A DNA stretch of 64,000 nucleotides from Opitutia bacterium. Its GTDB lineage: Bacteria > Verrucomicrobiota > Verrucomicrobiia > Opitutales > T3Sed10-336. Each line of letters opens with the position of its first letter. Positions within the stretch are counted from its first letter, which is position 1. Location of the stretch: NCBI GenBank assembly GCA_050506795.1, contig JBJHCF010000008.1:1-64000 (forward strand), written 5' to 3'. The notes under the pieces were generated by a model. That model was not told the origin of the DNA. It searched no databases and saw nothing but the letters and a program-made list of their open reading frames with translations. This document shows, piece by piece, positions 1,002 through 43,414 of the stretch. Position numbers and translations under genes: made by a program.

Positions 1002-1742
1002 TCATTTGCCCTTATCATTCCTCCTGCAACGGAATACCTCCACACCGACCATTTCATCGTTTTCGTCGAATTCGATCAGCAGGGGAAGTTTTTCGAGTAC
1101 GGCTTTGGGCAATTCGGAAACAAACGCCCCGGAAGGAGGTCGCTCGCCTGGTTTGTGCTTTTTCAGTTTCAGGTGAATCTGTAAATCGCCGAACGAACAC
1201 TCGACGCCGCCTTCTTCAATATCGACCAACCGCTCCGCGGCAACGGCAATGTCGAGATCGCCCTTGGCGAGCTGCTTCGAGCGGTAAGCGTTGTGGGCAT
1301 CAACCTTCGCTTTCGCGCCGTGAAACCGGATCGAATCTTCGAGAATCGAAGCTTGCTTCTTGTTGCGAAAGGTCTTCGTCGAGTTGGGCTTCACCCTGCT
1401 TCCAATGCGCTTCTGTCCATTCCGCGGCAACAAGAGCCAACGCTCCTCCACATCCCGCACGGTTCCGCACACCTTGCATGCCGTCCGCCCCTCTCGGGTT
1501 TTTCGCCAGCCTGCACGGTGCGGACACTGTAGGGACAGAAACTCCCACAATTCTCCGAGTTGCTGATAAATCTCTCCCATCCGCTCTCCCTCCTCGCCTT
1601 TGTCCAACGATGGATGCTTCGACACAAAGTCCATACTGAGAAAGAGCTGCTTGAACCGGGATTTGAGGTTGTCCTGTTTCGCTTTCATTGGGGGCGGAGA
1701 TGTTTCAGGTTTTGAAAGATTCGTTCGGTTGATGTTAGACAC
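1002..1742 (-). CDS. Hypothetical protein downstream of the RT, with a Zn-ribbon-like C-x-H...CxxC and a DUF2283-like C-terminus; candidate retron effector/accessory protein
   Basis: GTG start overlaps the RT stop (GGTGTCTAA); alternative ATG at 1688. Motifs 'QCPH...ACKVCG' and 'LLIEFDENDEMVGVEV'. Confidence 0.6.
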   Translation of the reverse strand: MSNINRTNLSKPETSPPPMKAKQDNLKSRFKQLFLSMDFVSKHPSLDKGEEGERMGEIYQQLGELWEFLSLQCPHRAGWRKTREGRTACKVCGTVRDVEERWLLLPRNGQKRIGSRVKPNSTKTFRNKKQASILEDSIRFHGAKAKVDAHNAYRSKQLAKGDLDIAVAAERLVDIEEGGVECSFGDLQIHLKLKKHKPGERPPSGAFVSELPKAVLEKLPLLIEFDENDEMVGVEVFRCRRNDKGK

Positions 1743-11212: not shown

Positions 11213-11234
11213 TAAATGGCGAAAGGATAAAACA

Positions 11235-14200: not shown

Positions 14201-14573
14201 CTACTTGAAATTGAGCAATAAATCCGCGGAATGGCCCTGCGACTTCTCCGGAGCAGAAAAGGTTACCCTGGAAGAAACCGGACAGGAGGCTAAAAAGGAC
14301 GATTCCGTCGAAGAAGGGAGTTCCAAGCATTTCGCCTCGGCAGTTGTCGACCTGGACGATGCCCAAGACCTTCTCGACACCCTGGCCAACGAAACCGTAC
14401 CAACACTCCTCGAAATCAAAGCGAAAAGCGGTGTCGCAATGAAGATTCGTATACGAATCGAACGCGACGCCGAATCAGGAGAATTGACAGCCGAAACCAC
14501 CGCAGAGATCCGAAAAGCACTGAAGGCCGCCTCAGGAGAGTTCAAGGTGAATCACTCAACCAGCGCCCATTAA
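11235..14573 (+). CDS. DUF499 family AAA+ ATPase
   Basis: 'KPWHEVVALRDDL...FAADL', Walker A 'YGGGKTH', Walker B 'LVLLDE', 'YPFDPEL'. RBS GAAAGGA before ATG 11235. Confidence 0.9.
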   Translation: MPKLPWKPWHEVVALRDDLKTGELSLSLFAADLYEVLMQSGKRPVYEHAEEFFALTYPTHNLRTLVRDVALRIAGKNDKAVRQLELTYGGGKTHTLITLRHLHHDPANLPNVPSVAEFKEEIGETPTRAKIVGLCFDKIDVETPIEARGPEGEERKLLQPWSFLAYQLLGDEGLKILHKDGKAEERVSPPSELLITKLFDAATANGDGVLVLLDEVIAYARQKINLDAKWESIMEDFFQFLTQAAGKTNRCCIVASILASDVKYQDAVGNRLRDKFYAIFQRQREEAIEPVEKRDVAEVLRRRFFKPESIRDVASFKPHVIAALKGVIEADDETRRNQADAEDRYLRSYPFDPELTDAFYSKWTSINGFQKARGVLRVFALAIREAARWDTSPLIGAGAFLREPEEEGLSNAAHELVTIADGQDTEGKRANWTGILTSEIGRAKKIQNDSIGLDSREIEIAAFATFLHSQPTGRSARLRDLILLLAPSRPDKIELEKGLKRWARMSFWLDDRHTANAEEKLPETWALGNRPNLNQMHAKAAAEIDGDVVKARLLDEIGKAKDLTRGASASGVRVHTLPQKPKDVEDDGDFHYAILGPDATSESGKPSAEATRFLNETTSAEKPRVYRNAIILLTPTRDGVELARSAIRDYLAWEQVRTDLKDESDDGQVDVARMQTLAIRVKEAQGKISGAIYQAYSTVVTINEKNEPHAFKLSISDEPHFQIIKNEPRSRIKDTAINAESLLPGGPYDLWNEGQTTRRVKDLTGAFAQLPRLPKMLKAETILETLVDGCKNGAFVLKLRRPDGSERSWWFSTPDDNALKDPALELVLADKSELVEVDPSLIAKDKLPGLWNESEITVQDVYDYFKGEHVIQVTKGEYEEPLIIPMAHQTVVDKAIKAAVEKGDVWLINGPTSICGEEVAPGILNAKATLLPPPEPISVTDILPEVLPEAWAEGKASASAIASALAQKAGKTLPWKTVEAVITQSINNRYLKLSNKSAEWPCDFSGAEKVTLEETGQEAKKDDSVEEGSSKHFASAVVDLDDAQDLLDTLANETVPTLLEIKAKSGVAMKIRIRIERDAESGELTAETTAEIRKALKAASGEFKVNHSTSAH

Positions 14574-16932: not shown

Positions 16933-17108
16933 GGTATCTGTTAATCCAATTAAATTCACCTCTATAAGACCCGACGAGCACGCGGATTGATTATTCCCGG
17001 GAATAATCACCCGAAAGCATCGTCATATTCCCTATTGAGAAAGTGCCGGTACGATGCCGATTTCAATCAATGCTTTCCGTTAAACCGACTCAACGACAAC
17101 CACGATTC

Positions 17109-17681
17109 ATGATCCGTTCCTCCACAACACCGACCGCCGACAAACCGTGCCTCGACGCGGCCGTCGAGGCGCTTTTTCAAGGAGAGCTCATGTTGAGCCT
17201 GGTCAACGAAACCACCTATACGAAGCCTGTACCGGAGGTTTTTAACGCAACTATCGGCGGACATTTTCGCCATGTGCTCGATCACTTTCAGATCGTGCTC
17301 GATGCCCTGGAGACCCGTACGTTGGACTACAGCAGACGTCCGCGCGAGCAGGCGATCGAAACCTCCCCCGCGCGAGCTCTCGACCGAACCCGCGACCTGG
17401 CGGATCGATTCGCCGGCATTGAAGCAACAGCCATGGCGCGACCCATCCAGGTAACCGACACCCTTTCCGAGGAGAACGACAGCCCAACCGCCATATTTTC
17501 ATCATCCATCGCCCGCGAAACCCTTTACGCGGTCCACCACGCGATCCACCACTTCGCCATGATTCGCGTCATGGGCCAGCTGATGGACGTCCGCTTTCCG
17601 GAGGACTTCGGAGTGGCGATTTCGACCCTGCGACACCGTCGCCATAACGGAGACCTTCGAAGGGACCAATCCTCCGGTTAG
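17109..17681 (+). CDS. DinB/YfiT-family putative metalloprotein
   Basis: 'IGGHFRHVLDHF', 'LDYSRRPRE', 'HHAIHHFAMIR', 'FGVAIST'. Start uncertain. Confidence 0.75.
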   Translation: MIRSSTTPTADKPCLDAAVEALFQGELMLSLVNETTYTKPVPEVFNATIGGHFRHVLDHFQIVLDALETRTLDYSRRPREQAIETSPARALDRTRDLADRFAGIEATAMARPIQVTDTLSEENDSPTAIFSSSIARETLYAVHHAIHHFAMIRVMGQLMDVRFPEDFGVAISTLRHRRHNGDLRRDQSSG

Positions 17682-17742: not shown

Positions 17743-18537
17743 ATGTGCACCGCTTCCTGGATACGCTTCCAAGGAGGATTCATCCTTCTCTTCAACCGCG
17801 ATGAACGTCGCGACCGGGCCAGGGCCGGTAGGCCGCGGATAATCGAGGTCAATGGTGGGAAAGCGGTCGCTCCCCGCGACGAAGAAGCGGGAGGAACCTG
17901 GATTTTCGCCAACGACTCAGGGTGTGCCGGCGCGCTGCTGAATCACTACCCCCTGCAAAAAACCGATGAGGACAGTACCCGCGATTTCATCAGCCGCGGC
18001 CGACTTCTGCACGAATGCTCCGGCGCCCCCTCCTCGGAAGCCCTGGCCGCCACCCTGCGCAATACCCTGGATTCGGGACCGTTTCGTCCCTTCCTGCTGG
18101 CCTTTTTTTCTCCGCAGGAGCCTCCGTTGCTATGGACCTGGGACGGAACCCGTCTGCACCCGCCGTCGGCGCCCGAACCCCCCGTGACAACGTCTTCGTG
18201 GCAATCGTCCGTGGTCGAAGCAAACCGGCGACGGGCCTTCGAAAACCGGTTTCCGAAAGGACAACCCGTCTCCCCCGACGACCTGGAAGCTTTCCATCTC
18301 GGCAAAGACGTAACCCCGGGACCGGGTGGGGTATTAATGGAACGGGACGACGCCCGGACGGTCAGTTTTACGCGGATCGATGTCGGGCCGCTCCATGTTC
18401 AAATGACCTACCGTGAACGGCTTTCCGGCAACCGTTTCGAAGCGCCTCACCGTACCGTGCTTCCCCGAAGTGAATCCATCACTTTTCCCCACCCGCCCAA
18501 CCGCCGCTCTCACCATCGGATCCGCTCATGCCATTGA
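17743..18537 (+). CDS. NRDE (TANGO2-like) family Ntn-fold protein
   Basis: N-terminal 'MCT...LFNRDE', 'AGGTWI', 'SRGRL', 'TTSS'. Confidence 0.88.
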   Translation: MCTASWIRFQGGFILLFNRDERRDRARAGRPRIIEVNGGKAVAPRDEEAGGTWIFANDSGCAGALLNHYPLQKTDEDSTRDFISRGRLLHECSGAPSSEALAATLRNTLDSGPFRPFLLAFFSPQEPPLLWTWDGTRLHPPSAPEPPVTTSSWQSSVVEANRRRAFENRFPKGQPVSPDDLEAFHLGKDVTPGPGGVLMERDDARTVSFTRIDVGPLHVQMTYRERLSGNRFEAPHRTVLPRSESITFPHPPNRRSHHRIRSCH

Positions 18538-20333
18538 TCGACACCGCTCGTTTCCTTCCCGGTCCCCGTCTGCGCGCCTGCTACCGGTCGGTCCAGCCCT
18601 TGATTGAAACGGCGCTCGGCTTCCGGGATTTGGAAAGGCGGTACACCCGGCTTCCCCATCGCGGCGATTCCCCCGCCGAATTCGCCCGCATCGCCCTGCA
18701 GGCCCTGAGCGTGACCTGGGAAATGTCCGAGACCGAACGAAATGATCTCGCCGCGATCCCGGGGCCGGTAGTGATCTGCGCCAATCACCCCTGCGGTCCC
18801 CTCGAACCGCTCGCTTTGATAGCTCTCCTGGATGAAACCCGCCCCGAGGCCTGCAAGGTATTGGCAAATCGAATACTTTCCACCATTCCCGAACTCCAAC
18901 CGGGACTCATTCCGGTGGAACCCCTGTATCCCGAAACCGGCCGCAAAAGCGGCATTAACGGTTTCCGCCAGGCGATCGGGCACCTCGCCGGGCATCAGGG
19001 AACCGTCCTGATATTCCCTGCCGGAAGGGTTTCCGGCTGGTCGCGGGAATTGCGAGTAGTCTTTGACCGCCCCTGGTCGGAGCACCCCGTAAAATTGGCG
19101 GCACACACCGGTGCTTCGCTGGCCTGCGTTCATGTCGAGGGCACGCCCAGTCGTCTCTTTCTGTCGATTCCCCGCAACTGGAGCCACCTGCGCGGTCTTT
19201 TGCTGGCCCGGGAACTCACCGGCACTCCCACCCGTCACCTCAGGATTCGACTCGCGAAGGTTTTCACTCCGGATGAGACAAGACGCCTGGCCGCGCAAAC
19301 CCGCCCCGCCGACCGGCTCCGCGCCCACTGTTACCTCGGCGCCGACCGAGCACTCGCTGCGGCCAAACCGCCGCCTGGTGTACCGGAAACGACCACCGAA
19401 ACCGCTTCCCCCGTGGCCTCCGCATTGTCCCACGACATCGCACGCCTTACAACGAACGGCCACAAAGTGGCCGACGCCGGGAACTACGCGGTTCTCCTCC
19501 TTCGCGGCGACGAGTCCGAACCCATCCTGACCGAAATCGGACGCCTCCGTGAAATCACATTCCGTGCGGCGGGCCAGGGCACGGGCAACGAGATCGATCT
19601 TTCCCCGGAAGACCAATACTACCACCATCTCGTGCTCTGGGACGAAAACGCCGCCGCACTGATTGGCGCCTATCGTATCGGATTCAGTGATACTATAGCG
19701 GCCGAACAAGGAAGGGACGCCCTCTACCTCCAACCTCTTTTCCGATTCCCGGAACGCTTTTACCGCACGATCGGTCCGGCCATGGAGCTGAGTCGCTCCT
19801 TCATCGTTCCCTCCCGCCAACGCGATGGACGCGCCCTCGCCACGCTTTGGCGGGGACTGGCCGCCGCGGCCCAAAGTCGGGCCTGCCGGACCTGCTACGG
19901 ATGCGTCACGATCTCCAACGCCTTTCACCCCGCCAGCCGCGCGATCCTCGTCGATTTCCTCGACCGCTGGTATGGCGATTCCCACGACCTGCGGAAACTC
20001 GTTCATCCCCGCAATCCTTTTCGAGCGGAGACAAGATACCACCGCCTCTGGACCAAGGCTCTGGCCGGCGAGAAAATCGACGACCTCCGTCCAATCATCG
20101 AAGACCTCGAAAACCACCACCGTTCGATCCCGCCCCTCATTCGCTACTACTGCGCCCTGGGCGCCCGGTACCTCGCCTTCCACGTCGAACCCTCCTTCAA
20201 CAACGCCCTCTACTGCCTCTTGCGCGTCGATATAGCCCAGATCAGCCATCGCTATAAAAGTCGCTTCGGTGCGACGAGTTCCGCGAGATCCGAACCGGCG
20301 ATGGCTTCGCATCGGAACAAACCGGGAAATTGA
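18528..20333 (+). CDS. PlsC-type acyltransferase / GNAT N-acyltransferase fusion (amino-lipid synthase-like, 'putative hemolysin')
   Basis: 'ANHPCGPLE' and 'IFPAG' (PlsC); 'EIGRLREITFRAAGQG', 'IGAYRIG', 'ELSRSFI', 'IPPLIRYY' (GNAT_5). Confidence 0.85.
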   Translation: MPLIDTARFLPGPRLRACYRSVQPLIETALGFRDLERRYTRLPHRGDSPAEFARIALQALSVTWEMSETERNDLAAIPGPVVICANHPCGPLEPLALIALLDETRPEACKVLANRILSTIPELQPGLIPVEPLYPETGRKSGINGFRQAIGHLAGHQGTVLIFPAGRVSGWSRELRVVFDRPWSEHPVKLAAHTGASLACVHVEGTPSRLFLSIPRNWSHLRGLLLARELTGTPTRHLRIRLAKVFTPDETRRLAAQTRPADRLRAHCYLGADRALAAAKPPPGVPETTTETASPVASALSHDIARLTTNGHKVADAGNYAVLLLRGDESEPILTEIGRLREITFRAAGQGTGNEIDLSPEDQYYHHLVLWDENAAALIGAYRIGFSDTIAAEQGRDALYLQPLFRFPERFYRTIGPAMELSRSFIVPSRQRDGRALATLWRGLAAAAQSRACRTCYGCVTISNAFHPASRAILVDFLDRWYGDSHDLRKLVHPRNPFRAETRYHRLWTKALAGEKIDDLRPIIEDLENHHRSIPPLIRYYCALGARYLAFHVEPSFNNALYCLLRVDIAQISHRYKSRFGATSSARSEPAMASHRNKPGN

Positions 20334-21621: not shown

Positions 21622-22338
21622 ATGAAAACACGAAATCAGGGCTTCACTTTAATAGAGTTGCTCACTGTAATCGCTATAATCGGTATTCTGGCGGCCATAC
21701 TGATACCGGTGGTATCAAGAGTTCGCGAGTCGGCACGCCGTGCCAATTGCGTAAGCAACCTTCGTCAGATTGCCGTTTCATCGATGCTGTTCGCATCGGA
21801 AAACAATGATAGGCTGCCGGTGATCACGCAAGGGAACTGGGCTTGGGACGTTGACGTCTCCGTCATGAACCAACTGGTCAATACAGGTGGCGGTGAACGG
21901 GACATGTTCTTCTGTCCGTCGGGAAAGTTTGAGGATCGGATCGAGCTATGGGGGTTCGCCGACGAGAGCACGGAAGACGATGTGGCCGGCTTCAGGGTCA
22001 TCACCTACGTATTACTCTATGAGGGCGCCAATGGGGTTGACCCGAGGTTCACCAACCGAAGAATCGGCGAACCAGAGCCCTACACCCAGGGACGGCAAAC
22101 CGTTTACCCTTCCGAAAGCGAACGAGAGCTGGCGGTCGACGCAGTGATGTCGCAAGACGGCGACAACTTCCACTCTATCACTCTTGGAGGCGCACAGAAT
22201 CCCGACCGTACCAACCATCTCGACGGACAGATGCCAGCGGGAGGCAATATTGTCTTTCTGGACGGACACGTCGAATGGCGACCATTTCACGAAATGGACA
22301 GCACCAAACACGATGGGGCTCCCCAATTCTGGTGGTAA
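21622..22338 (+). CDS. Prepilin-type N-terminal cleavage/methylation protein with H-X9-DG C-terminal motif (DUF1559-like)
   Basis: '[22 protein letters not shown]', 'CVSNLRQI', 'FFCPS', 'NH...[13 protein letters not shown]'. Confidence 0.9.
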
Positions 22339-30994: not shown

Positions 30995-32773
30995 ATGAAA
31001 GCGAACCACATCGTCGCGTTTCGATCCGGGAACATCTCCGAATTCACCTATTGGGCCGAACACGCCGCCGGACTCAACGCCACACATGTCCTCGTAACCG
31101 AAGACCTGCCGAAAGCGTCCTGGCAATTGGATCGAAGTCGCGATCCCTACCCGGCCTGGTTCATCCACCAGCCGGGGCTCTTGAAGATCTTTCCCTCGGG
31201 AATTTTGAAACCGTTCGTCGATCTCGACCATGCCGAGCGCGTGGCATCGCTGATCGAGGAGCGGTGCCGCATTCTGCGCCGTCTGGGACTGAAGGCCTGC
31301 TATCAGACCAACGAGCCCCAGGTCCTTCCCGAAGAGTTTTTCCGGACGTATCCGGAACTCCGGGGCCCCCGGGTTGACCACCCGCACCGCTCCCGCCTCC
31401 CCCACTTCGCTCCCTGTACAGACCGGCGGGAGATTCTGGATCTTTATTCCGCGGCAATCCGGGCGCTCCTGACCCGCTGCCCCGAGGTCGAGGTGTTTTT
31501 CATGATGACCACCGATTCCGGATCGGGCTTCTGCTGGGCTCCCTCCCTGTACCCGGGAAACAACGGCCCCTCGAATTGTTACGGTGCGGATCCGGATGCC
31601 CGGGTGGTGCGTTTCCTGACAACACTGCAGGAGGCCGGACGGGAAGCGGGGTGCGCGGCCTCCGCGGACCTCGTGGAAATTCCTCCGCGTCCGTGGATGG
31701 TTCCTACCTTCCAAAACCCCGCCGCCCTGGCAGCGCGGCTGCCCCGTGGGCTGGCAGTCAACCACCGGGAGGGACCGGACGGACGCCGCTTCACAGGTAC
31801 GCTGGGGATCGAAGGGCTTTGGTGGAACGCCTTCTATCCGGTCATCGGGGTGCCCCGGCCCGCGGCATTCCTGCGTAAACTGAGCGCGGGGGCGCAAACC
31901 CCGGCGAACTGGCAGGTCGTTTCCTTTAATGACCGGCTGAACAACGAGCTCAATTTCGCCGTATGGAGAGCCTTCAAATCGAACGTCCCGGCCGGCGCGG
32001 TGGAACGTCTGTCTCTGCTGCGAGACGTCGCCGCCGCATCCATCGGCCGGGACAAGGCCAACACCTTGCTCGAACTCTGGCTGCAAATCGACGAAGCCGA
32101 ATCCCTCCTGGAAACACTGGACTTCGGCCCGGTGCTGCTGATGGGGTGCGTCCTCACGCGATGGATCAACCGCCCGTTCGTTCCTTTTCCGGAGGAACTG
32201 CCCGACGAAGACCTCCGCACCTGGAAGCCGTTTCTGCTTCAGGCGAAAAGCGACGCACAGGCCTTCAATCTGGCGGACATCCAGGCCATGCGCATGTTTG
32301 AGGGCTGGGGCTCGCGCCTGATCGTGGAAAATGTGACCGGCCTCGTCCTCCGGAAAATCAACCGAGCGATCTCTCTCGCCGGGGATATCGAAGACACTTC
32401 CATGGCAATCCGTCTCCGCGTGCTGCGTTGTTTCATCCGATGCGTTTCCCACGCGGTGGCCTATCAGGCGCAACTCGATCGCATCAAACAAATCGAGACA
32501 CCTCCCACTGACAACCCGCCGCTCGGAGCCAGGGGAAGCTGGGAACGCGACGATCTTCAAGGGATCGCGCGGCGGGAAATCTCGAATGCGATCGATTTAA
32601 GAGAACTCTGGATCAACTCGACAGAGCCCCTAATCGACATCGCCTCTTCAGCGGAGGAAGAAACCATCACCCAACTCGGCCCGGACCTCCCCGACCAACT
32701 CGCGCGGAAAATCGCCATCATGGACTCCGCGTGGGGCGACTACGACCGCCTCTTCACCCCGCCCAACCCTTGA
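30995..32773 (+). CDS. Hypothetical protein (592 aa), possibly a carbohydrate-active TIM-barrel
   Basis: Long ORF with GC3-biased codons; no motif I can confidently assign. Confidence 0.6.
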   Translation: MKANHIVAFRSGNISEFTYWAEHAAGLNATHVLVTEDLPKASWQLDRSRDPYPAWFIHQPGLLKIFPSGILKPFVDLDHAERVASLIEERCRILRRLGLKACYQTNEPQVLPEEFFRTYPELRGPRVDHPHRSRLPHFAPCTDRREILDLYSAAIRALLTRCPEVEVFFMMTTDSGSGFCWAPSLYPGNNGPSNCYGADPDARVVRFLTTLQEAGREAGCAASADLVEIPPRPWMVPTFQNPAALAARLPRGLAVNHREGPDGRRFTGTLGIEGLWWNAFYPVIGVPRPAAFLRKLSAGAQTPANWQVVSFNDRLNNELNFAVWRAFKSNVPAGAVERLSLLRDVAAASIGRDKANTLLELWLQIDEAESLLETLDFGPVLLMGCVLTRWINRPFVPFPEELPDEDLRTWKPFLLQAKSDAQAFNLADIQAMRMFEGWGSRLIVENVTGLVLRKINRAISLAGDIEDTSMAIRLRVLRCFIRCVSHAVAYQAQLDRIKQIETPPTDNPPLGARGSWERDDLQGIARREISNAIDLRELWINSTEPLIDIASSAEEETITQLGPDLPDQLARKIAIMDSAWGDYDRLFTPPNP

Positions 32774-32828
32774 AGCACCACAAAACGACAAGATTTTTGT
32801 CGAAAGAAGTTTTGCATCCGAGTTGTCC

Positions 32829-35180
32829 TCACAATCCCGATACCCCATCCCCTGCCGAAGCGGTCTGAAACGCTGACAAAGAAGAAATCGTCCTTTCCAT
32901 CCACTGAGCGGCAGCGGCCACCGTGTCGCCGGTCAGCCGTCTTTCCTTTCCAGCCAAAAGAGCGCCCAAAAGCAAACCCAGAAATTCGTCCGGTTCCTCC
33001 GCACTACCGTCCTCCGGCCCTCCCACCCGTCGGATCTCCCGAAGCGTCACCGCTTTGCCAACCAGTTTGGGATCCGACGCTTCGATCCGGCTGCCCGCGG
33101 AAGCCTGCTCCCGTATAAGCGAAAACGGTCGATTGCGAAGCTCCACGCGCCAGGGTAATCCGAGCGTCTTGACTTCGCCTGGACGTCCGGCAAGGAGGCA
33201 GATTCCTCCTGCGACAGACCCCTTGGCGAATGCCGAAGGCCACACCCATTGGTCGACGCCATTGCCGTTCTTTTCCGGCAGCCACAATCGGCCCGTCGGC
33301 AACTCACTTCCCTCCTCCGGCATGATTTCAACAATCCCGTGAAGAGGGATTTCCTCGGAAGACCGATGCCCCAGCCGGTGGAGGTGTTCCCCTAAAGCCA
33401 TCAGTACTTCCGAGAGGGAATTGTCGCCGGAGAGAACCTCGTCCTGCGACAACAAAACGTAGCCGTGTCCGAACTGCCGGATATCCAAACTGATTTCCTG
33501 TTCGTCCGGTCCATTCGCCGGCCGGTCCGGCAACGGGACAAAGGCCCTCCGCACCCGGTCCGCCACGGCTTCGGTCGGACAGTTTATCCGGCACACAATC
33601 GAACCAACGGAAAGCCTTACCCCGACCGCGTCGCGCTGCCGAAACGGACCGACACCGGACGGATCGGGTTGTGCCGCCGCTCGGCCGGCACTCAGCATTT
33701 CCTGCGCCGTCCAATCCGCCAGCAAAGACCAGACCTGGTTTCGGAGGACGGAGGGAGCCACTGCTTGGCCCGCATTCTCGTACCCCTCCGTCAAAGCCTC
33801 GACGATTTCTTCCGGCGACTTGCCTTCCGTGGCCATAAACCAGATCCAGGCCGCCGTGTCGTTGAGATCGAGCAAGCGTCCGTCACTCTCCCTATAAAGG
33901 CAAAGCCGCTCGTTTCGCACGACCTCTCCGACGCGATGGCGCCGCAAAGGACGCGCTTCCGGATTAACACCATACAGCCGCTCGGCCACGGCCACATCGG
34001 CGTAGCGGGGAAAAGGGAAACAACTGAGGGAAAAACCGCTGTCCGCGCAGGGAAAAAGTCTCGTGTAACCACCGCGACGCCGTTCTTCCGCCTCCGTCTC
34101 CTTGATCCACCGCTCCGGCAACGAATCTTCGACGTCGGCCCGATCACGGCCCACCGCCGCCAGAGACAACGTGTCCTCAACCAGGGCGCGTTTATTTTCT
34201 TCTTCCTCTTCTCTTCCATGCCCGCGGGAGGCGCACAGGTCCAGGGAAGGGCTGAGATTGCACTCCATCACCCACGGTTTTAAATCGGCGTCGATCATAC
34301 AATCCACCCCGAGCAATTCGTAACACCCGGTCGGGTCTCCCTTGATTTGACGCGTACGCGCCAAAAAAGTCTCGCGCGCGGAAATCAGGAGCAGGGTCAG
34401 CATCTCGCGGATACGGTGAAACAGGGCATCCCCGTCGATTCCTTCAGCGGCCAGCCATTCCTTGTACTTCTGCAAACTCAAAAACGTCACCGGCGATTCC
34501 ACCCCCGAGTTGGCGGCGTTGATGTCCGGATTGGTCAAATGAGCGAACAAATTGTCCCGGTTTTCAGGATCATAAGGCGCCGAAGCCAGCTTCGCCGACC
34601 CTTCGCGGTAAAGATAAACACGCAGGGGCTCGACCGAGGTCACCAGGACATAAAGGCGCAACACGTACTTGTGCCCCTGATACAGGTGGGGACGCCGAAG
34701 GTACTGCTGAACCATCCATTTATCGTCCAAAGGGACCGCCGCCGGGTCCTCGACCAGCGAAATCCCCTTTCCTTTGGAGGCGTTTTTGGGTTTGAGAATC
34801 CACTCGCTTCGGGGGTCGGCAAAAGCGGCCTCCTGCAAGGCACGATAATCTTCGGGCATTTCAAAAACGGGCGGAACGAAATCAAAGCGGGACGCCGATT
34901 CGCCTCCCCACTCGATTCGCGCCCGCTCCCGCGCCGCCCTTACGGTCGACGCCAGCCGACTTTTTATCGTCAGACAGTGATTCCCCGGAATATGGTTCAG
35001 GGTCATGCCCCGCTTCAGCCGATCGAAGAAGGCGGCGGGCGGCATTCCGGTAAACCAGCAATCGGTCCACCGTTTCTCCGTTCCGGGCTTCGCCCCGCCT
35101 TTTAATAAGGCTTCCTTAAAAAACAAGTCCTGGGCGGGCTTCCGCTTGCCGCCGAGGAAGAAGAGTCGCGGTTGGGACAT
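32829..35180 (-). CDS. Tubulin-tyrosine ligase (TTL/TTLL)-family ATP-grasp ligase fused to a PqqD/RRE domain and a C-terminal domain of unclear function
   Basis: TTL motifs 'NHIPG..LTIK', 'WILKPKNASKGKGI', 'VQQYL', 'KYVLRLYVLV', 'HLTN', 'YELLGVDCMID...PWVMECNLSPSL'. PqqD-like 'LDLNDTAAWIW...SPEEIVEAL...VWSLLADW...EML'. RBS AAAGGAGG. Confidence 0.88.
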   Translation of the reverse strand: MSQPRLFFLGGKRKPAQDLFFKEALLKGGAKPGTEKRWTDCWFTGMPPAAFFDRLKRGMTLNHIPGNHCLTIKSRLASTVRAARERARIEWGGESASRFDFVPPVFEMPEDYRALQEAAFADPRSEWILKPKNASKGKGISLVEDPAAVPLDDKWMVQQYLRRPHLYQGHKYVLRLYVLVTSVEPLRVYLYREGSAKLASAPYDPENRDNLFAHLTNPDINAANSGVESPVTFLSLQKYKEWLAAEGIDGDALFHRIREMLTLLLISARETFLARTRQIKGDPTGCYELLGVDCMIDADLKPWVMECNLSPSLDLCASRGHGREEEEENKRALVEDTLSLAAVGRDRADVEDSLPERWIKETEAEERRRGGYTRLFPCADSGFSLSCFPFPRYADVAVAERLYGVNPEARPLRRHRVGEVVRNERLCLYRESDGRLLDLNDTAAWIWFMATEGKSPEEIVEALTEGYENAGQAVAPSVLRNQVWSLLADWTAQEMLSAGRAAAQPDPSGVGPFRQRDAVGVRLSVGSIVCRINCPTEAVADRVRRAFVPLPDRPANGPDEQEISLDIRQFGHGYVLLSQDEVLSGDNSLSEVLMALGEHLHRLGHRSSEEIPLHGIVEIMPEEGSELPTGRLWLPEKNGNGVDQWVWPSAFAKGSVAGGICLLAGRPGEVKTLGLPWRVELRNRPFSLIREQASAGSRIEASDPKLVGKAVTLREIRRVGGPEDGSAEEPDEFLGLLLGALLAGKERRLTGDTVAAAAQWMERTISSLSAFQTASAGDGVSGL

Positions 35181-35197
35181 GCCGAAAGACTCCTCCT

Positions 35198-35551
35198 TTA
35201 ATGAGAGTCTGCTTCGGCTTCCCCCTCAGCTTCGGCCTCTCCTTCGGCTTCCCCCTCGGCTTCCGCTTCCGCCTCGGCTTCTGCTTCTGCTTCGGCTTCC
35301 GCTTCGGCTTCGGCTTCGGCTTCTCCTTCGGCTTCAGCTTCTCCCTCGGCTTCCGCTTCCGCTTCGGCTTCTCCCTCAGCCTCGCCTTCTCCTGCCGCCA
35401 TCACGTAATACCCGCTTTCCGACGTGAAATCGGAAAGAATGGCATGGCCTCCGGCAACGGCCCCAATGGCAATCACCACCGGGGCTGAAAGGGTCACCCC
35501 TTTGGCCACCAGTTTCTGCAGTTCATTTCGCCGTTTTTCTTCTTCAGACAT
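35198..35551 (-). CDS. Putative precursor peptide: 54-aa leader with a hydrophobic stretch, then 30 x Glu-(Ala/Gly), then DSH
   Basis: Repeat codons vary (GAA/GAG; GCC/GCG/GCA/GCT), which indicates protein-level selection. 17 nt to the TTL start, 12 nt from the DoxX stop. Confidence 0.85.
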   Translation of the reverse strand: MSEEEKRRNELQKLVAKGVTLSAPVVIAIGAVAGGHAILSDFTSESGYYVMAAGEGEAEGEAEAEAEAEGEAEAEGEAEAEAEAEAEAEAEAEAEAEAEGEAEGEAEAEGEAEADSH

Positions 35552-35563
35552 AGTAAAAATCGG

Positions 35564-35974
35564 TTAGGAGTTATTGCCGCGGATAAAAAGGTAGCCGGCC
35601 ACAAGCAAAAGGGTCACCTGAAAACCGGCGCCTCCCATCGGGTGCGTGTCGGTGGGCATCATGTGCCATTGCCCCCAATGAACCATCAGGATCGCCCCCA
35701 ACATGACGGGGAAGACCAGAAACGCTCCGATCCGCGTGATCACGCAAAAGGTGAAACCACCGATCAGAATGAGCGCACCGGCGACGATTTCCGTCACCGC
35801 CACCAATCCGGCGATCGCTTCGGGCAAACCGGTGCCCGCCGAAAATTCGGCGATACCGCCACCCAGGAATTTATCGACCCCGTAGTAGAGAAAAATCGAA
35901 GCCAGCGCCACTCGCAGAAGCCAATGGGCGTGGCGATCCAACGGGGTGTCGGGAGCATTTGTTTGAGAAGTCAT
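35564..35974 (-). CDS. DoxX family membrane protein
   Basis: 'WLLRVALASIFLYYGVDKF', 'EIVAGALILIG...TR', 'MLGAILMVHW', 4 TM helices. Confidence 0.88.
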   Translation of the reverse strand: MTSQTNAPDTPLDRHAHWLLRVALASIFLYYGVDKFLGGGIAEFSAGTGLPEAIAGLVAVTEIVAGALILIGGFTFCVITRIGAFLVFPVMLGAILMVHWGQWHMMPTDTHPMGGAGFQVTLLLVAGYLFIRGNNS

Positions 35975-36091: not shown

Positions 36092-36505
36092 TCACGGAGA
36101 TTCGTCATTCCCGTCGCCGCGGGCGAACATACAGCGAATGAACTCAATTTGATGCCGGCGAAGAAGAAGAATCAGGGCGGCCGCGCACCAATTAGTGGCA
36201 GCGGCAACAGTCATGGGCAGCATCGGACCCGTCAGACCGAGTTCGGTCAGGTGGGCGATGAGGGCGCCGCTCATCACCCCCCAAGTCAGTATCGCCCCCC
36301 AAGGCGCACTGTAAGGGATGAGAAGCAGGACCGCGGCGGCAAGCTCAAGCACGGCAATGAGGTAACGGCCCCCCGGCTCCATGCCTAGCGTTTCGAAAAC
36401 CGCGATGGATTCAGCGTGGCCCGTGAGCTTGGCGGCGGCGGAAGCCCCGAGGATAATGGCCGCCATGATTTGGAGAATCCACGCGCTGAAGATACGGAGT
36501 TTCAT
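36092..36505 (-). CDS. DoxX-like membrane protein
   Basis: 'AKLTGHAESIAVF..LGMEP.GRY', 'ELAAAVLLLIP', 'MSGALIAHL'. Confidence 0.85.
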   Translation of the reverse strand: MKLRIFSAWILQIMAAIILGASAAAKLTGHAESIAVFETLGMEPGGRYLIAVLELAAAVLLLIPYSAPWGAILTWGVMSGALIAHLTELGLTGPMLPMTVAAATNWCAAALILLLRRHQIEFIRCMFARGDGNDESP

Positions 36506-36511
36506 GGAAGC

Positions 36512-38065
36512 TTAGCGTTTTAGCGTTTCGCGGAGGTCGGGCCGCTCGGCAACCATGCGCCAGAGGTTGCTCCCGGTGGGAATGTAGAGGTCGTCGACGG
36601 TCAGTTCACTCGGGCAGACTTTCCCCATGGCGATGGTGAGTTCCTCCAGTTCGTGGCAGGTGTTGTCGATATAGTTCTTGACCCGTACCGCCTTGGCCTC
36701 TGGAACGAGACCGGCCTGAAGTCTCGGGTCCTGGGTTGTAATTCCGACCGGACAGGTGTTGTTGCCACACTCGCGGGCCTGGATACAACCGAGTGCGAAC
36801 ATGAAACCGCGGGCCGTGTAGCAGGCGTCGGCTCCGAGGGCGAAGGCGATGCACTGGCGGCCGGCCTCGACGAGTTTTCCGGCGGCGAAGACGTGCGTTC
36901 GGTCGCGCACCTCTTCACTCTTCAGGATCTGCACGAGGCCGTGAAGAGCGGGAAAGAGCGGCAGGCCGATACGGTCCAGAAAGGCGCTCGGTGCCGCCCC
37001 GGTGCCGCCCTCCCCACCATCAATCGCGATCGAGTCGGGAAAGACGTCCTGCCGCTTCATTTCCACGACCAACGCGTGCAATTCGTCGAATGAGCCGACG
37101 CAGAGTTTGATTCCCACCGGTAGGGCGACCAGCGACTGAACATGACCGATGAACCGGACGGTGGAGGGAAGGTCGACGCACTCGGAGTGATAAGGCGGAG
37201 AAATGATGTCCTCCCCCATCGGAACCTTCCGCAACTCCGCGATTTCCGGGGTGATTTTTTCCTTCGGCAGGAGGCCGCCCTTGCCCGGCTTGGCGCCTTG
37301 GGAAAACTTGATTTCGATCATTTTGACCTGGGGCTTGTCGGCCACTTCGCGGAGTAAGTCGGGGTCGAGCGCGCCGCTTTCGGTGCGAACACCGAACTTG
37401 GCGGTCCCTATCTGGAAAGTCAGATCGGCTTCCTCCATCAGGTGGTACTTCGGGTAACCGCCCTCGCCGGTGTTCATGGTGACCCCGGCCATCGCGGCCC
37501 CCCGCGCCAGGGCGCGGACGGCGTTTTCTCCGAGCGCACCGTAGCTCATGGCACTAATCATCAGCGGACGGGTCAGAGTGTGCGGCCGTTCCACCCCGCG
37601 ACTCTCGCCCAGCGTGAGCCGGAACGGCCGGGCCGCCTCCTTGTGGGTTGGGAACATGGAGTGGCGCAGCTTGATTTCGGTCGCGTCGTAGTCGAGCAAA
37701 CTTCCGAAGGAGGCGGCGGATTCGACGTTCTTGGCCTTGCGGTAGAGGTTGGTCCGTTCCAGGCGATTGAAGGGACGCTCTTCGCGGTCGTTGTTGAAGA
37801 GATACTGGCGAAGTTCCGGGCCCAGGCTTTCAATCAGGTAACGGCCCTGCCCGATGAGACCGAAGTTGCGCAGGAGGGTGTGTTCGCTCTGAACGTAACG
37901 GTAGAAGAGGTTGACAATCAGGAAAAAAAGCGCGGCGACCGTAGCGAAGTGAAAGTAAAAGGAGATCGTGCTGCCAAGCGCGAAAAAGAATGCCGGCAAG
38001 ACAAACAGGGCCGCATTCGTAAACCGAGCCAGCTTATGGAGATCGACGCGAAGTGCTTGTGGCAT
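36512..38065 (-). CDS. FMN-binding glutamate synthase family protein (membrane-anchored, YerD-like)
   Basis: 'ISAMSYGALG', 'NTGEGG', 'EIKFSQGAKPGKGGLLP', 'DGGEGGTGAAP', 'GCIQARECGNNTCPVGITTQ'. Confidence 0.92.
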   Translation of the reverse strand: MPQALRVDLHKLARFTNAALFVLPAFFFALGSTISFYFHFATVAALFFLIVNLFYRYVQSEHTLLRNFGLIGQGRYLIESLGPELRQYLFNNDREERPFNRLERTNLYRKAKNVESAASFGSLLDYDATEIKLRHSMFPTHKEAARPFRLTLGESRGVERPHTLTRPLMISAMSYGALGENAVRALARGAAMAGVTMNTGEGGYPKYHLMEEADLTFQIGTAKFGVRTESGALDPDLLREVADKPQVKMIEIKFSQGAKPGKGGLLPKEKITPEIAELRKVPMGEDIISPPYHSECVDLPSTVRFIGHVQSLVALPVGIKLCVGSFDELHALVVEMKRQDVFPDSIAIDGGEGGTGAAPSAFLDRIGLPLFPALHGLVQILKSEEVRDRTHVFAAGKLVEAGRQCIAFALGADACYTARGFMFALGCIQARECGNNTCPVGITTQDPRLQAGLVPEAKAVRVKNYIDNTCHELEELTIAMGKVCPSELTVDDLYIPTGSNLWRMVAERPDLRETLKR

Positions 38066-38086: not shown

Positions 38087-39256
38087 TCAAGTGCGGGCGG
38101 CTTCGGTGACCGCGCGTGCGACGCGACGCGGGACCTCTTCATCGAGAGCCGACGGCAGGATCCGCTCCGGGTCCGGCTCCGGGATGCTCCGGGCGATCGC
38201 CTCGGCGGCGGCCGCTTTCATCGCGTCCGTTATGCGCGGTGCGCGCGCATCCAGGGCGCCGCGAAAAATGCCGGGAAAGACCAGTACGTTGTTGACCTGG
38301 TTGGGGAAATCACCACGGCCGGTGGCGACCACCGACGCGCCGCCGGCCCGGGCCTCGTCGGGGAGTATCTCCGGATCCGGGTTGGCCAGGGCGAAAATGA
38401 TCGGGTCCGACGCCATGCGGCGAATATCCGCCGCCGTGAGCAATCCCCCGCGGCTGACTCCGACGAAGACGTCGGCTCCCTCGAGCATGGATTTGAGGCC
38501 ACCCGCTCGATCCTCGGGATTGCTGTATTCGAGCACGGCTTGTTTCACCGGGCCGAGGTCGTCGCGGCCGGAGTGGAGCGCCCCCTTGGAATCACAGACC
38601 ACCACTTCGCCCACCGTATCACAAACCCCGGAGACCTGATCGACACAACGGAGCAAACGCACAATGGCGCGCCCGGCCGCGCCCGCGCCGGAAATGACAA
38701 TCCGCAAATCGGAAAACTTTTTCCCGGCCACTCGGGCGGCGTTAATCAATCCCGCCAGCAAGACCACGGCGGTGCCGTGCTGATCGTCATGCATGACGGG
38801 AATACCGAGATCCTGGAGCCGGTCTTCGATTTCGAAGCAGCGGGGAGCGGAAATATCTTCGAGATTCACGCCGGCGAATCCGGGCGCCAACGCGCGCACC
38901 GCAGCCACCACGGCATCGGGCTCGCGAACGTCGAGGCAGATCGGCCAGGCGTCGATGCCGGCAAGTTTTTTGAAGAGAGCCGCCTTCCCCTCCATTACGG
39001 GCATGGCGGCGGCGGAACCGATATCGCCGAGTCCGAGCACGGCTGAACCATCGGTAACCACGGCCACGGCGTTGCCCGCCACAGTCAAATCGCGCCGGGC
39101 AGACCGATCGTCCCGGATCGCCCGGCACACCGCGGCCACACCGGGAGTGTAGGCGCGACTCAAATCCTCGAGATCCTCGAGGGGAACCTTCAACGCGAGT
39201 TCGATCTTGCCGCGACAGGCACGATGCAGTTCCAGGCTTTCGCGGTCAATTGTCAT
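38087..39256 (-). CDS. NAD(P)-dependent malic enzyme (short form)
   Basis: 'AYTPGVA', 'VTDGSAVLGLGDIG', 'VMEGKA', 'NLEDISAPRCF', 'HDDQHGT', 'PNQVNN'. Confidence 0.95.
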   Translation of the reverse strand: MTIDRESLELHRACRGKIELALKVPLEDLEDLSRAYTPGVAAVCRAIRDDRSARRDLTVAGNAVAVVTDGSAVLGLGDIGSAAAMPVMEGKAALFKKLAGIDAWPICLDVREPDAVVAAVRALAPGFAGVNLEDISAPRCFEIEDRLQDLGIPVMHDDQHGTAVVLLAGLINAARVAGKKFSDLRIVISGAGAAGRAIVRLLRCVDQVSGVCDTVGEVVVCDSKGALHSGRDDLGPVKQAVLEYSNPEDRAGGLKSMLEGADVFVGVSRGGLLTAADIRRMASDPIIFALANPDPEILPDEARAGGASVVATGRGDFPNQVNNVLVFPGIFRGALDARAPRITDAMKAAAAEAIARSIPEPDPERILPSALDEEVPRRVARAVTEAART

Positions 39257-39435
39257 AAGGCATGCATTTCTGGACGCACCGGTCGGCGTTTTATTCCGTC
39301 CCCCAACTCTTGTCCGCGCAAATCCGGGAAAGCTTTGACACGGCATCCCGGCCTGCCGGTACGATTCGCAGATCGGGGGAATATATGGGTGTTGGGCACG
39401 TCATGGCAGGAGCGGTATCACAAAAGGATCAAACC

Positions 39436-40713: not shown

Positions 40714-41475
40714 TCATTCGGAAACGATTCTTATGAAGTCGATCGCCGCCGCGGTCGATTGGCCGGTATCGTCGGAGTCGGTCATAATTGCGATTCGTGC
40801 CGTTTCCGGCGGGTCCTCCCCAAAGAACCGTTCGTAGTCCTCCAGAATATGAATGGATTCCTCCCGCCATTCGCCCAACGGAGTGTCTTCCCCGCGCAGG
40901 ACAAACATCCCGACCCGGTCGGTGTAGGGACTCGGATAGTTGTCTTCTTCGACCGAAACCGCCGTCCACACGTAAGTCAGTCCGGAATGCGGCGGGAATT
41001 CTCCCCGGAGCGCCCGATACGCACGGTACCGGATCCGTGTTCCGAGATCGAGACCCTGCCGTTCGTACTCAAAGAATACGTACAAGCGCGCCGGATAGTC
41101 ATCGCCATCCCGCCGGAGGTGATCGACCCCCTCGATCGCCTTATCCACCCTCCACCGCCATTCGACGACCGGATAATCGCGGACGCGGAAGGGTTCCTTG
41201 AGAACGATTCCCGACCCTCCTCCATCACTCGTCATCAGAAGGAAGGGATTCCCCTCGTCATCCTCCTCGACGGCGTACACCGACTCGCGCGGGACCGCCG
41301 GAAAGGTGTGCGGTTCCCACCGGTCCAAATCGGCAAATGTCTCCTCCAGGCATACCTCGCGGCCGGAGGTTGCCACGGCGGCCGCCGCCAAGCCGAGAAA
41401 CCATAACAGGGCCGCACTGCGGAAACCCCACGCGAATCTCTCGCGCTCATTGAACAACCTAAAGCAACACACCAA
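40714..41475 (-). CDS. DUF3047 domain secreted protein
   Basis: 'EWRWRV', 'GDDYPARLYVFF', 'LTYVW', 'SPYT', 'IAIMTDSDDTG'. Start uncertain. Confidence 0.85.
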   Translation of the reverse strand: MVCCFRLFNERERFAWGFRSAALLWFLGLAAAAVATSGREVCLEETFADLDRWEPHTFPAVPRESVYAVEEDDEGNPFLLMTSDGGGSGIVLKEPFRVRDYPVVEWRWRVDKAIEGVDHLRRDGDDYPARLYVFFEYERQGLDLGTRIRYRAYRALRGEFPPHSGLTYVWTAVSVEEDNYPSPYTDRVGMFVLRGEDTPLGEWREESIHILEDYERFFGEDPPETARIAIMTDSDDTGQSTAAAIDFIRIVSE

Positions 41476-42088: not shown

Positions 42089-43414
42089 CTATCCGCCGCC
42101 GTTGAAATACCGGCTGGTTCCCAGCGCTTCGACCGCTTCTCCAATCCTTTGAAGCGCCAGCACATAGGCGGCGCGCCGCATGGAGATTCCGTGTCGATCC
42201 GCCAGGGCCTTCACCTCGCCGAATTGTTCCCGCATGCGTTTGTCCAACCGGCCATTCACCTCGTCTTCGCTCCAATAATCGCCCGAACGGTTCTGCACCC
42301 ATTCAAGGTAGCTCACCGTCACCCCGCCCGCATTGGCGAGGATGTCCGGCACGACCAGGACGCCCTTTTCATCCAGCACGGCGTCCGCCGAATCGTCGGT
42401 GGGACCGTTCGCCAGTTCGAGAACGACACCGGCCCGCACGTTTTTGGCGTTTTGTTCGCCGATGACGCCGGACAGGGCGGCCGGAATGAGAATATCGACG
42501 TCCAGAGCGAGCAATTCCTCATTGCTGAGTGTCTCGGCATCGACCGTTTCGCAAACGCTCCCTTCGCAATAGACCGCCTTGAGCTGACGCGTTTCGTTCT
42601 TGGAGTGAATCAGGCTTGGCACGTCGAATCCTTCTTTGCGGTAAATTCCCCCGCGTGAATCACTGACCGCCACCACCCGATAGCCGTCCGCATGCAGGAG
42701 CCGCGCCACCGCCTGACCGGCGTTGCCGAACCCCTGCACAGCCACGGTGGTTTTCGGAGGATTCCATCCCCGTTCCTCCTCCAACTGCTTCAAACAGATG
42801 TAACCCCCGCGACCGGTGGCCGCATCGCGTCCGAGACTGCCGCCCAGAGCGATCGGCTTTCCCGTGATGACGGCCGGTGTTCGGCGGCGGACGACGTTAG
42901 AATACTCGTCCATCATCCACCCCATGATCCGTGCGTTCGTGTACACATCGGGCGCCGGGATATCGGTTTCGGGGCCGATGAAATCGGCAATGCGGGCAAT
43001 GAACCCGCGGCTTAAACGCTCGAGTTCCCGCGTCGAAAGCGACTTCGGATCGACCATGATTCCACCCTTGGCCCCTCCCAGTGGCAGCCCCATGACCGCG
43101 CATTTGCAGGTCATCCAAAACGCCAGGGACTTGACCGTATCCAGGGTCAACCCGGGATGGAAGCGAATCCCTCCCTTGCCGGGCCCGCGCAGGTCGTTGT
43201 GGCGCACCCGATACCCCTCGAACACACGCAAACTTCCATCGTCCATCCGCACCGGCACCGATACGGTAACGATCGATTTTGGATACTTCAATCGTTCGAT
43301 CACCTCGGGATGAACATCGAGATAACCCGAGGCCTCGTCCAGCCGGGCAATCGCTCTTTCGTAACTTCCGCTGGAAGCGTTTTCGGTTCGTTGGGCCTTT
43401 TCGCGGTCAGACAT
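42089..43414 (-). CDS. gdhA: Glu/Leu/Phe/Val (glutamate) dehydrogenase
   Basis: '[11 protein letters not shown]', 'GGAKGG', 'DIPAPDV', 'ITGKP..LGGS.GR', 'VQGFGNAG', '[18 protein letters not shown]'. Confidence 0.95.

Follow-up and report, generated by a model that had tools for sequence, protein, structure and literature searches.

A bacterial TTL-family ligase with a PqqD-type domain and its probable partner, a peptide of Glu-Ala and Glu-Gly repeats

Three tightly spaced genes

The stretch of DNA analysed here, called the window, comprises 64,000 nt from an Opitutia bacterium (assembly GCA_050506795.1, contig JBJHCF010000008.1, positions 1–64,000). On its minus strand lies a trio of genes that encode, in this order, a DoxX-family membrane protein, a peptide with a long run of Glu-Ala and Glu-Gly dipeptides, and an enzyme that joins a tubulin-tyrosine-ligase (TTL) domain to a recognition element of the kind found in the maturation of RiPPs, peptides that are made on the ribosome and modified after translation. 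The intergenic gaps measure 12 nt (35552–35563) and 17 nt (35181–35197).

The DoxX-family protein (35564..35974, minus strand, 136 aa) matches Pfam DoxX PF07681 with an E-value of 4.2e-12; in NCBIfam it is weakly similar to the HvfX family RiPP maturation protein (1.4e-05, under the curated cut-off). The open reading frame (ORF) of the precursor peptide (35198..35551, minus strand, 117 aa) has homologous leader-plus-repeat ORFs beside the enzyme in relatives. Its leader comprises residues 1–54 (35390..35551), and its core (residues 55–114, 35210..35389) holds the 30 E-A/E-G dipeptides and is followed by ADSH and the stop codon. The enzyme (32829..35180, minus strand, 783 aa) consists of a TTL/TTLL-type ATP-grasp domain (residues ~31–344, 34149..35090), a PqqD-type RiPP recognition element (RRE; residues ~410–499, 33684..33953) and a C-terminal HprK-related/PEPCK-like domain that lacks a Walker A motif (32832..33647). 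Read directly from the sequence, a Shine-Dalgarno motif AGGAGG (35192..35197, minus strand) stands 11 nt ahead of the ligase ATG. A terminator-like hairpin with a T run lies 27 nt past the ligase stop codon (32786..32802, minus strand); it is a consensus match only, such sites numbering 8 here and 8.4 by expectation from shuffled sequence.

The first-pass annotation of this DNA, made from the letters alone, had proposed three tight genes with a strong ribosome-binding site before the ligase, a 54-residue leader ahead of 30 E-A/E-G dipeptides, and TTL and PqqD domains in the enzyme. The coordinates, the AGGAGG at 35197–35192 and the ORF translation confirm the gene layout and the peptide, and Pfam places both TTL PF03133 and PqqD PF05402 above their curated cut-offs.

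The repeat peptide and the enzyme occur together

Among 8000 candidates scored in a homologue search, 462 match the enzyme at E ≤ 0.001, the nearest with 44% identity. The homologues come mostly from Halomonas, Marinobacter, Ectothiorhodospiraceae, Aquisalimonas and Robiginitomaculum, and their source annotations include 'amylase', 'PqqD family peptide modification chaperone' and 'TTLL5'. All locus counts given here refer to the best 80 of at least 229 relatives from a scan of one genome per species. When a repeat ORF is defined as one with at least 10 E[AG] units in a 40-residue span, it is present in 74 of the 80 loci. The distance to the enzyme gene is at most 300 bp in 64 loci and at most 1000 bp in 6 more; one repeat ORF lies within 3000 bp and one farther away, and two have no distance, the enzyme ORF being unclustered.

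Presence and absence of the two partners were compared with two profiles run over identical genome samples, one of 35 leaders without their repeats and the other of the C-terminal half of the enzyme. In the family of a Halomonas locus (121 genomes) both profiles match the same 25 genomes, and in that of a Marinobacter locus (101 genomes) the same 7. Leader and enzyme are thus concordant in 222 of 222 genomes, with 32 carriers and no discordant case. The leader profile finds the precursor gene at E-values of 1e-9 to 1e-25, and only in enzyme-bearing genomes. There are one or two leader matches per genome, most of them on the contig of the enzyme gene and no more than a few kb from it, and the farthest second copies are ~15–35 kb away (genomes G104, G110, G146, G168 and G173). 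Acidic-repeat peptides therefore do adjoin the homologues of the ligase, as the first-pass annotation had predicted, and enzyme and peptide are very probably a cognate enzyme–substrate pair.

It could be argued instead that the peptide is no substrate at all but an exported polyanion, a regulator or a decoy that is co-inherited with an enzyme acting on another protein. No modification of the peptide has been demonstrated, and the nearby genes for DoxX, an extracytoplasmic function (ECF) sigma factor and cytochromes could reflect a shared stress regulon. Such a reading has to contend with the perfect co-occurrence in 222 genomes and the spacing of at most 300 bp in 64 of 80 loci. It also leaves aside that an RRE is fused to the enzyme while an RRE-type motif is present in the leader, and that the core is similar to the RPGR Glu-Gly repeats, which TTLL enzymes are known to use as substrates. 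We consider it improbable.

The own genome of the window (4.9 Mb) contains one TTL-family gene, the one adjoining the repeat gene, and a TTL-family search of 14 control genomes gave no match. The enzyme was found in none of 60 genomes related to that of the window, one of which carries a weak stand-alone TTL; given this absence, the locus looks horizontally acquired here. As a separate observation, locus L083 (G055:C13), in a genome of the window's order, encodes a stand-alone 413-aa TTL-like ATP-grasp protein without an RRE (ORF 1273–2514, minus strand; E-value 4.3e-20 to the window enzyme). That ORF lies directly upstream of a gene which, judged by eye, resembles the phosphoenolpyruvate mutase/isocitrate-lyase family, and it may belong to another, phosphonate-type pathway.

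The ligase domain

Residues 60–314 of the enzyme match Pfam TTL with 186.6 bits against a cut-off of 20.1 (7.6e-55). The closest sequences in the PDB are TTLL7 (2.1e-33), TTLL6 (1.7e-32), TTLL11 (5.6e-19), TTL (1.6e-14) and entry 5vlq (2.1e-13), which we take to be the glycylase TTLL3. TTLL7, TTLL6 and TTLL11 are glutamylases. Residues K130, D293, E306 and N308 do not vary among 16 homologues, and the segment MECNLSPS of the window enzyme aligns to LEVNISPS in TTLL6, so that E-C-N stands against E-V-N. By analogy with the roles assigned in TTL/TTLL structures, these four residues presumably bind ATP and Mg and include the catalytic E-x-N. The set of TTL/TTLL ATP-grasp motifs ascribed to the 783-aa protein at first reading is thus borne out both by the Pfam match and by the invariant residues. 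The active-site signature is intact, and the ligase is likely to be active.

The RRE and the C-terminal domain

Pfam PqqD matches residues 431–495 of the enzyme with 32.4 bits against a cut-off of 23.4 (1.1e-07). An AlphaFold2 (AF2) model of residues 395–783, built from a 40-sequence alignment, has a predicted local distance difference test score (pLDDT) of 84.5. In it the RRE forms a block of strands (E23–28, E31–36, E41–44) and helices (H47–57, H62–75, H82–98) with pLDDT 89–96. Foldseek retrieves TbiB1 with its leader (E-value 3.3e-04, probability 1.00, TM 0.79–0.86). VIA-align gives the lasso peptide B1 protein 6jx3_B, which has a bound leader, as the best structural match, with a Z-score of 13.3 and a root-mean-square deviation of 1.7 over 84 of 85 residues; 5v1u_A follows at Z 12.7, and the deviations of the lasso B1 matches span 1.7–2.0. 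The suggestion that the internal PqqD-like region folds as an RRE is thus upheld by the model, which predicts a winged-helix fold. Of 40 family members, 28 match NCBIfam lasso_PqqD_Strm, each with a score under the curated cut-off, and the lasso_PqqD match reaches 19–21 bits against a cut-off of 70. A complex prediction of the RRE and C-terminal half with the leader, run without controls, scored 0.05 against a mark of 0.32 and carries no weight for or against docking.

The last ~270 residues form an HprK/PEPCK-like domain that the first-pass annotation had overlooked. Modelled alone with AF2 (272 residues, pLDDT 86.4), this domain matches PEPCK folds with Z-scores of 9.8, 9.6 and 9.5 over 226–260 of the 272 residues, the next unrelated fold being at Z 4.9. 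Its second lobe (residues 97–272) matches HprK/P at Z 4.8–4.1. Foldseek agrees weakly (best E-value 1.1e-03), and sequence and profile searches of the PDB with the C-terminal domain gave no match (best E-value 1.7).

A bridge to known families comes from a profile of the RRE plus the C-terminal domain, which was run against 1.84 billion representatives. At E ≤ 0.001 it matches 1614 proteins, of which 597 reach E ≤ 1e-10 and 53 reach E ≤ 1e-30. Apart from the fused enzymes, the matches consist largely of stand-alone PqqD+HprK_rel_A proteins of ~400 aa, with both domains covered, at 1e-30 to 1e-20. Of 14 sampled stand-alone proteins, 13 match NCBIfam HprK-related kinase A with E-values of 1e-19 to 1e-32, short of its cut-off, and 13 match Pfam PqqD at E ≤ 0.01. 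The C-terminal 390 residues of the window enzyme are thus homologous to HPr-rel-A modules, which pair a PqqD chaperone (TIGR04353) with a kinase (TIGR04352). The Walker A loop separates the two groups. GSGKSTL or a close variant is present in 7 of 7 stand-alone forms and in 0 of 7 TTL-fused forms, which carry a TTL ligase in front; the window enzyme reads NGNGVDQW at this place. It has no NCBIfam HprK match, TIGR04352 included. The homology to PqqD+HprK proteins and the lost P-loop imply that the enzyme is a TTL ligase joined to the N-terminal side of a PqqD-plus-kinase module with a decayed kinase. The C-terminal domain is a probable pseudokinase.

Leader and core of the peptide

The core of the window peptide is an unbroken run of 30 E[AG] units, 23 EA and 7 EG. 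The DNA beneath it matches itself only at 77–80%, so it is in the protein that the regularity of the E[AG] pattern is maintained. Scanned in six frames, the complete 4,942,667-base genome holds a single run of at least 8 E[AG] units, that of the window peptide. Repeats of this type tend to be open in several frames, and there are indeed opposite-strand and shifted ORFs over this DNA, as would be expected if the repeat ORF were not a real gene but a tandem repeat in the DNA, open by chance. That explanation is barely credible: the 54-aa leader is conserved in this frame only and is common to gamma- and alphaproteobacterial loci, the E[AG] pattern holds in 30 of 30 units while the DNA has diverged as described, and the leader profile matches exclusively where the enzyme is present.

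The window leader is composed of a basic N-region, a conserved L..L.(K/R)G...(Y/L)..P motif, a hydrophobic stretch and a GYY.MAAG junction. Across the 105 repeat ORFs of the 80 loci, the pattern (L/I/V)(S/T/A/G/V)(R/K/Q)-x6-P is found in 101. The third residue before the motif Pro is Y in 75 of these 101 leaders and V in 17, and the second residue after it is L, M, F or I in 99. In the alignment of 35 leaders P24 is invariant and L11 nearly so. Most relatives read L..LSRG..Y..P.L, to which TLSAPVV is the window counterpart. As judged from the alignment, the leader motif is consistent with RRE binding.

After the motif the leaders have 12–15 hydrophobic residues, and in most relatives small residues (AVA-S, ATA-A) then precede the acidic part. 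The leader thus resembles a Sec signal peptide whose n/h boundary holds the RRE recognition motif, a character not mentioned in the first-pass annotation. A twin-arginine (Tat) leader was considered because Halomonas leaders carry RR. We rejected it as a general feature: KR, QR or NR is found in most leaders, and in that of the window the RR is followed by NELQ, with no Tat-like consensus.

One repeat ORF with a masked N was dropped for the core statistics, leaving 104. Of these, 37 run on for ~120 residues past the repeat, and every one of the 37 has a CxxCH motif there and the same leader as the short forms. One long-form representative matches a SoxA/TsdA cytochrome c domain at 7e-09 and NCBIfam SoxA at 1e-08, the latter below cut-off. 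Proteins of the c-type cytochrome class receive their haem and mature outside the cytoplasm, so in these fusions leader and repeat must cross the membrane. The notion that the product is possibly exported, already raised at first reading, gains support from the signal-peptide-like leader and from these cytochrome c proteins that share both leader and repeat.

The place of the repeat in the ORFs also bears on where the enzyme would act. In 67 of the 104 it reaches within 10 residues of the C-terminus, and many ORFs end exactly at the repeat. This would suit an enzyme that extends the C-terminal α-carboxylate of the peptide, like TTL adding Tyr or TTLL11 elongating primary chains, an activity of TTLL11 that PMC12366701 describes in vitro. 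However, the repeat is internal in the 37 long ORFs, where the cytochrome c domain follows a leader identical in type. The terminal residues are not conserved (G, A, GN, SY, DGY, and ADSH in the window), and 30 evenly spaced Glu residues are hard to account for if the terminus alone is used. We regard C-terminal extension as unlikely; the internal repeats would favour side chains over the C-terminus, and export as well.

The composition of the core speaks to the chemistry. The median length of short cores is 16 units (range 8–31), and they consist of 44% E, 25% G, 23% A and 3% K; Lys makes up 7% of long cores. Because ATP-grasp enzymes in general take many amine nucleophiles, the Glu carboxylates might be joined to a non-proteinogenic nucleophile such as a polyamine, or to side chains of the same peptide in graspetide-like isopeptide links, and the Lys of the relatives' cores would permit Lys-Glu links there. 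In the window, however, the core contains only E, A and G before ADSH, with no Cys and no Ser, Thr or Lys for macrocycles, and hence no side-chain nucleophile. As to other nucleophiles, the domain is clearly of the TTL family, whose characterised members use free amino acids; a Pfam scan at E-values up to 0.1 gave, beyond TTL, two weak ATP-grasp families, both below cut-off. A chemistry of this kind, too, seems unlikely to us.

Over all relatives the core varies from 20 to 109 residues and from 8 to 32 units, while the leader is conserved. A precursor gene beside a modifying-type enzyme, a conserved leader and a variable core are the marks of a RiPP, and the locus most likely encodes a conserved system, RiPP-like in kind, in which ribosomal peptides and proteins are matured.

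Some loci of Ectothiorhodospiraceae, Aquisalimonas and Geminicoccaceae (L003, L004, L002, L036 and L070) have two different short precursors flanking the ligase gene. One is a nearly pure (EG)n core on the opposite strand, just upstream of the ligase. The other is of the (EA/EG)n type, with an HAI.SD...GY.MAA junction as in the window.

A model for side-chain ligation

We propose that the enzyme ligates amino acids onto the side chains of the core Glu residues of this peptide, and assign this reading a probability of roughly 0.6. The starting material would be the 117-aa precursor, whose leader doubles as a Sec signal ahead of the 30-unit E-A/E-G core. In the cytoplasm, the leader motif would dock on the lasso-type RRE of the enzyme. 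The TTL ATP-grasp domain would then activate carboxylates of the evenly spaced core Glu residues as acyl-phosphates, as expected from the chemistry of the family, and free amino acids, most likely Glu among the candidates, would be joined to the activated residues as side-chain branches. The P-loop-less HprK-like domain would probably serve as a non-catalytic scaffold or a peptide-holding module. The modified product would be exported and its signal peptide cleaved, giving a periplasmic or surface polyanion; in relatives, leader and repeat would provide c-type cytochromes with an acidic N-terminal tail. The product may serve to buffer cations or metals, or contribute to the charge of the envelope. 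Handling of cations or metals at the cell envelope is weakly hinted at by the neighbouring genes and by the habitats of the carriers, which come from soda-lake, saline and marine sites, the window itself apparently deriving from a mine-tailings metagenome.

Glu is favoured as the added residue because the nearest solved relatives, TTLL7 and TTLL6, are glutamylases. We hold this assignment tentatively, at somewhat under even odds.

Several points weigh against the model. All of its chemistry is drawn from family membership, and similarity to glutamylases does not fix the amino acid added. The elongase determinant of TTLL6, given as Q180 in PMC12366701, could not be mapped onto the window protein, as the numbering is not fixed. 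The window leader has L at a key motif position where most relatives have Y. Six of the 80 loci have no clear repeat ORF: L001 and L028 hold weaker acidic ORFs, L006, L014 and L068 have short flanks, and in L078 no repeat ORF was found within 6 kb of the enzyme. Related genomes are not independent, and the perfect co-occurrence therefore overstates the statistical weight of the pairing. Export of the short peptides is deduced from the hydrophobic stretch, the small residues before the acidic part and the cytochrome fusions. Finally, bulky modifications would hinder Sec export according to the bufferin paper (PMC11626156), so the branches must be short if export is via Sec.

Genes around the trio and in related loci

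Upstream of the trio, at a distance of 117 nt, lies a DoxX_2 gene on the same strand (36092..36505; Pfam DoxX_2 3.1e-10), which is possibly part of one operon with the three genes. Only 6 nt before it, a gene on the minus strand encodes a membrane-anchored FMN glutamate-synthase-domain protein (36512..38065; Pfam Glu_synthase 1.7e-83). The family of this protein (cluster F17) occurs in 8 related Marinobacter loci, and the gene stands directly beside the enzyme gene in 6 loci (L031, L040, L048, L061, L065 and L080); a link to the ligase system is suggestive only. A malic enzyme gene on the strand of the trio (38087–39346) follows after a gap of 21 nt, and a glutamate dehydrogenase gene (42089–43414, minus strand) lies 4 kb beyond it. 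That these glutamate-metabolism neighbours are tied to glutamate supply is only a thought.

The commonest accessory gene encodes a DinB-like protein of ~200 aa directly after the short precursor, in 44 of the 80 loci (Pfam DinB_2 0.0017, below cut-off; its look-alikes in the Atlas are DinB families). DoxX homologues (cluster F19) are present in 9 loci and are thus not the commonest accessory gene. An ECF sigma factor occurs in 30 loci, its NCBIfam family TIGR02943 being matched above cut-off, and a small anti-sigma factor in 11. Further neighbours are a rhodanese (20 loci), DUF3047 (18) and a C92 papain-like amidase (14); this permuted papain-like enzyme could be an eraser of the branches. Examples of the neighbour clusters F8, F3 and F13 are at L053 10259–11014 and at L015 9545–10162 and 9330–9548. 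The window shares DoxX, the glutamate-synthase-domain protein (36512–38065) and DUF3047 (40714–41475) with related loci. Its DUF3047 gene (minus strand, Pfam 5.1e-58) belongs to a family that, in those 18 loci, mostly of Halomonas, lies within 6 kb of the ligase.

A DinB-like gene is also present elsewhere in the window (17043–17681, plus strand), its product being 30% identical (2.4e-15) to the accessory DinB-like protein of the 44 loci. It is followed by a gene for a TANGO2/NRDE-family protein (17743–18537, plus strand; Pfam 1.8e-09); the pair is 15 kb from the ligase operon and adjoins an acyltransferase/GNAT fusion at 18528–20333. In several Marinobacter loci a DinB-like/TANGO2 pair sits between the short precursor and the repeat-cytochrome.

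Other genes of the window are listed for orientation. For a 592-aa ORF (30995–32773, plus strand) that converges on the ligase gene, neither Pfam nor NCBIfam gives a match at E ≤ 0.1. A protein with a prepilin-type N-methylation motif and DUF1559 (21622–22338, plus strand) and a 1134-aa DUF499 protein (11169–14573, plus strand) are unrelated to the ligase system. The combination of prepilin-type N-methylation motif and DUF1559 is typical of Planctomycetota and Verrucomicrobiota.

Comparison with known systems

The eukaryotic TTLL glutamylases, such as TTLL5, TTLL6 and TTLL7, have a catalytic domain of the same family as the window enzyme, PF03133. They also act on disordered Glu-Gly-rich stretches, like the presumed substrate here, and share with the window enzyme the logic of a docking module separate from the catalytic domain. 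The closest functional precedent, by analogy, is TTLL5, which is reported in PMC13052805 to dock on a separate domain and then glutamylate the Glu-Gly repeats of RPGR-ORF15. The window system differs in being bacterial and in that docking would use a PqqD-type RRE on an N-terminal leader, whereas eukaryotic TTLL enzymes dock through microtubule-binding or cofactor-interaction domains. Unlike their substrates, that of the window appears to be the small, exported product of a dedicated adjacent gene.

Lasso peptide B1/PqqD RREs such as TbiB1 and 6jx3 have a fold like that of the window RRE. A YxxPxL motif bound by B1-type RREs is described for actinobacterial lasso leaders in the review PMC6784204, and the leaders of our relatives carry a similar YxxPx(L/M/F). 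In contrast to lasso B1 proteins, the window RRE lies between an ATP-grasp ligase and a kinase-like domain, and the window leader, unlike lasso leaders, also resembles a signal peptide. Neither a lasso B2-type leader protease nor an asparagine-synthetase-like cyclase was found in Pfam scans of the ORFs in 24–45 kb.

Bufferins and oxazolins are MNIO-modified, Sec-exported RiPPs with a periplasmic product and with DoxX and ECF sigma genes, genes that also occur in the ligase loci. According to PMC11626156 and PMC12452194, bufferin and oxazolin precursors have a signal peptide, are long or repetitive, including Glu-Gly-Lys-Cys-Gly repeats, and their clusters have as a hallmark signal-peptide precursors together with DoxX and ECF sigma/anti-sigma genes. 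The statement in the first-pass annotation that DoxX genes accompany some repeat-precursor RiPP loci thus agrees with what is in print in these two sources. In bufferins DoxX is not needed for modification, as stated in PMC11626156. MNIO (DUF692) and DUF2063 were not found in the same Pfam scans of 24–45 kb, and the window core has no Cys. As the window enzyme is an ATP-grasp ligase, its chemistry must differ from that of the bufferins.

Graspetide enzymes and RimK provide a parallel for the proposed chemistry, since they are ATP-grasp enzymes that act at Glu/Asp carboxylates of ribosomal peptides or proteins; RimK adds Glu residues to ribosomal protein S6 (PMC4431377). They belong to a different ATP-grasp family, only TTL being above cut-off in the window. 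The window core lacks the Ser, Thr and Lys partners of a graspetide, and S6 as the target of RimK also differs.

Novelty and significance

The first reading of this DNA had not recognised the combination as a described RiPP class, and our literature search found no description either. It yielded no report of a TTL-family enzyme in connection with PqqD, an RRE or a RiPP, although Iyer et al. 2009 may note bacterial TTL neighbourhoods. Two RRE genome-mining papers do not have 'tubulin' or 'TTL' in their main text or readable supplements. The search likewise found no bacterial substrate for TTL/TTLL. The pair is probably a peptide-modifying system that has escaped description. Its novelty is not categorical: its domains are already named by database annotators, and it combines known kinds of system, namely RiPP maturation guided by an RRE and the modification of Glu-Gly tails by TTLL enzymes.

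In eukaryotes, TTL/TTLL enzymes are the known writers of the tubulin code. Their ATP-grasp domains are of bacterial origin according to PMC3495828, which cites Iyer et al. 2009. It is possible, at odds that we put a little short of even, that the locus represents the first bacterial substrate system of the TTL family and a new class of RiPP or protein modification, in which RRE-guided branches are placed on (Glu-Ala/Gly)n tails of peptides and c-type cytochromes before export.

The locus offers a directly testable enzyme–substrate pair, and at least 229 of the scanned species genomes carry a member of the family. If the proposed chemistry is true, RiPP biology would gain a new RRE-dependent modification, side-chain aminoacylation, and TTL-type enzymes could also decorate exported redox proteins. 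The system would further provide a simple bacterial model of how TTLL enzymes read Glu-Gly tails and would suggest a route to defined polyanionic peptides. Because its native substrates resemble tubulin tails and the Glu-Gly repeats of RPGR, the TTL-RRE family could be the prokaryotic source of the eukaryotic 'tubulin code' writers and of their preference for Glu-Gly tails.

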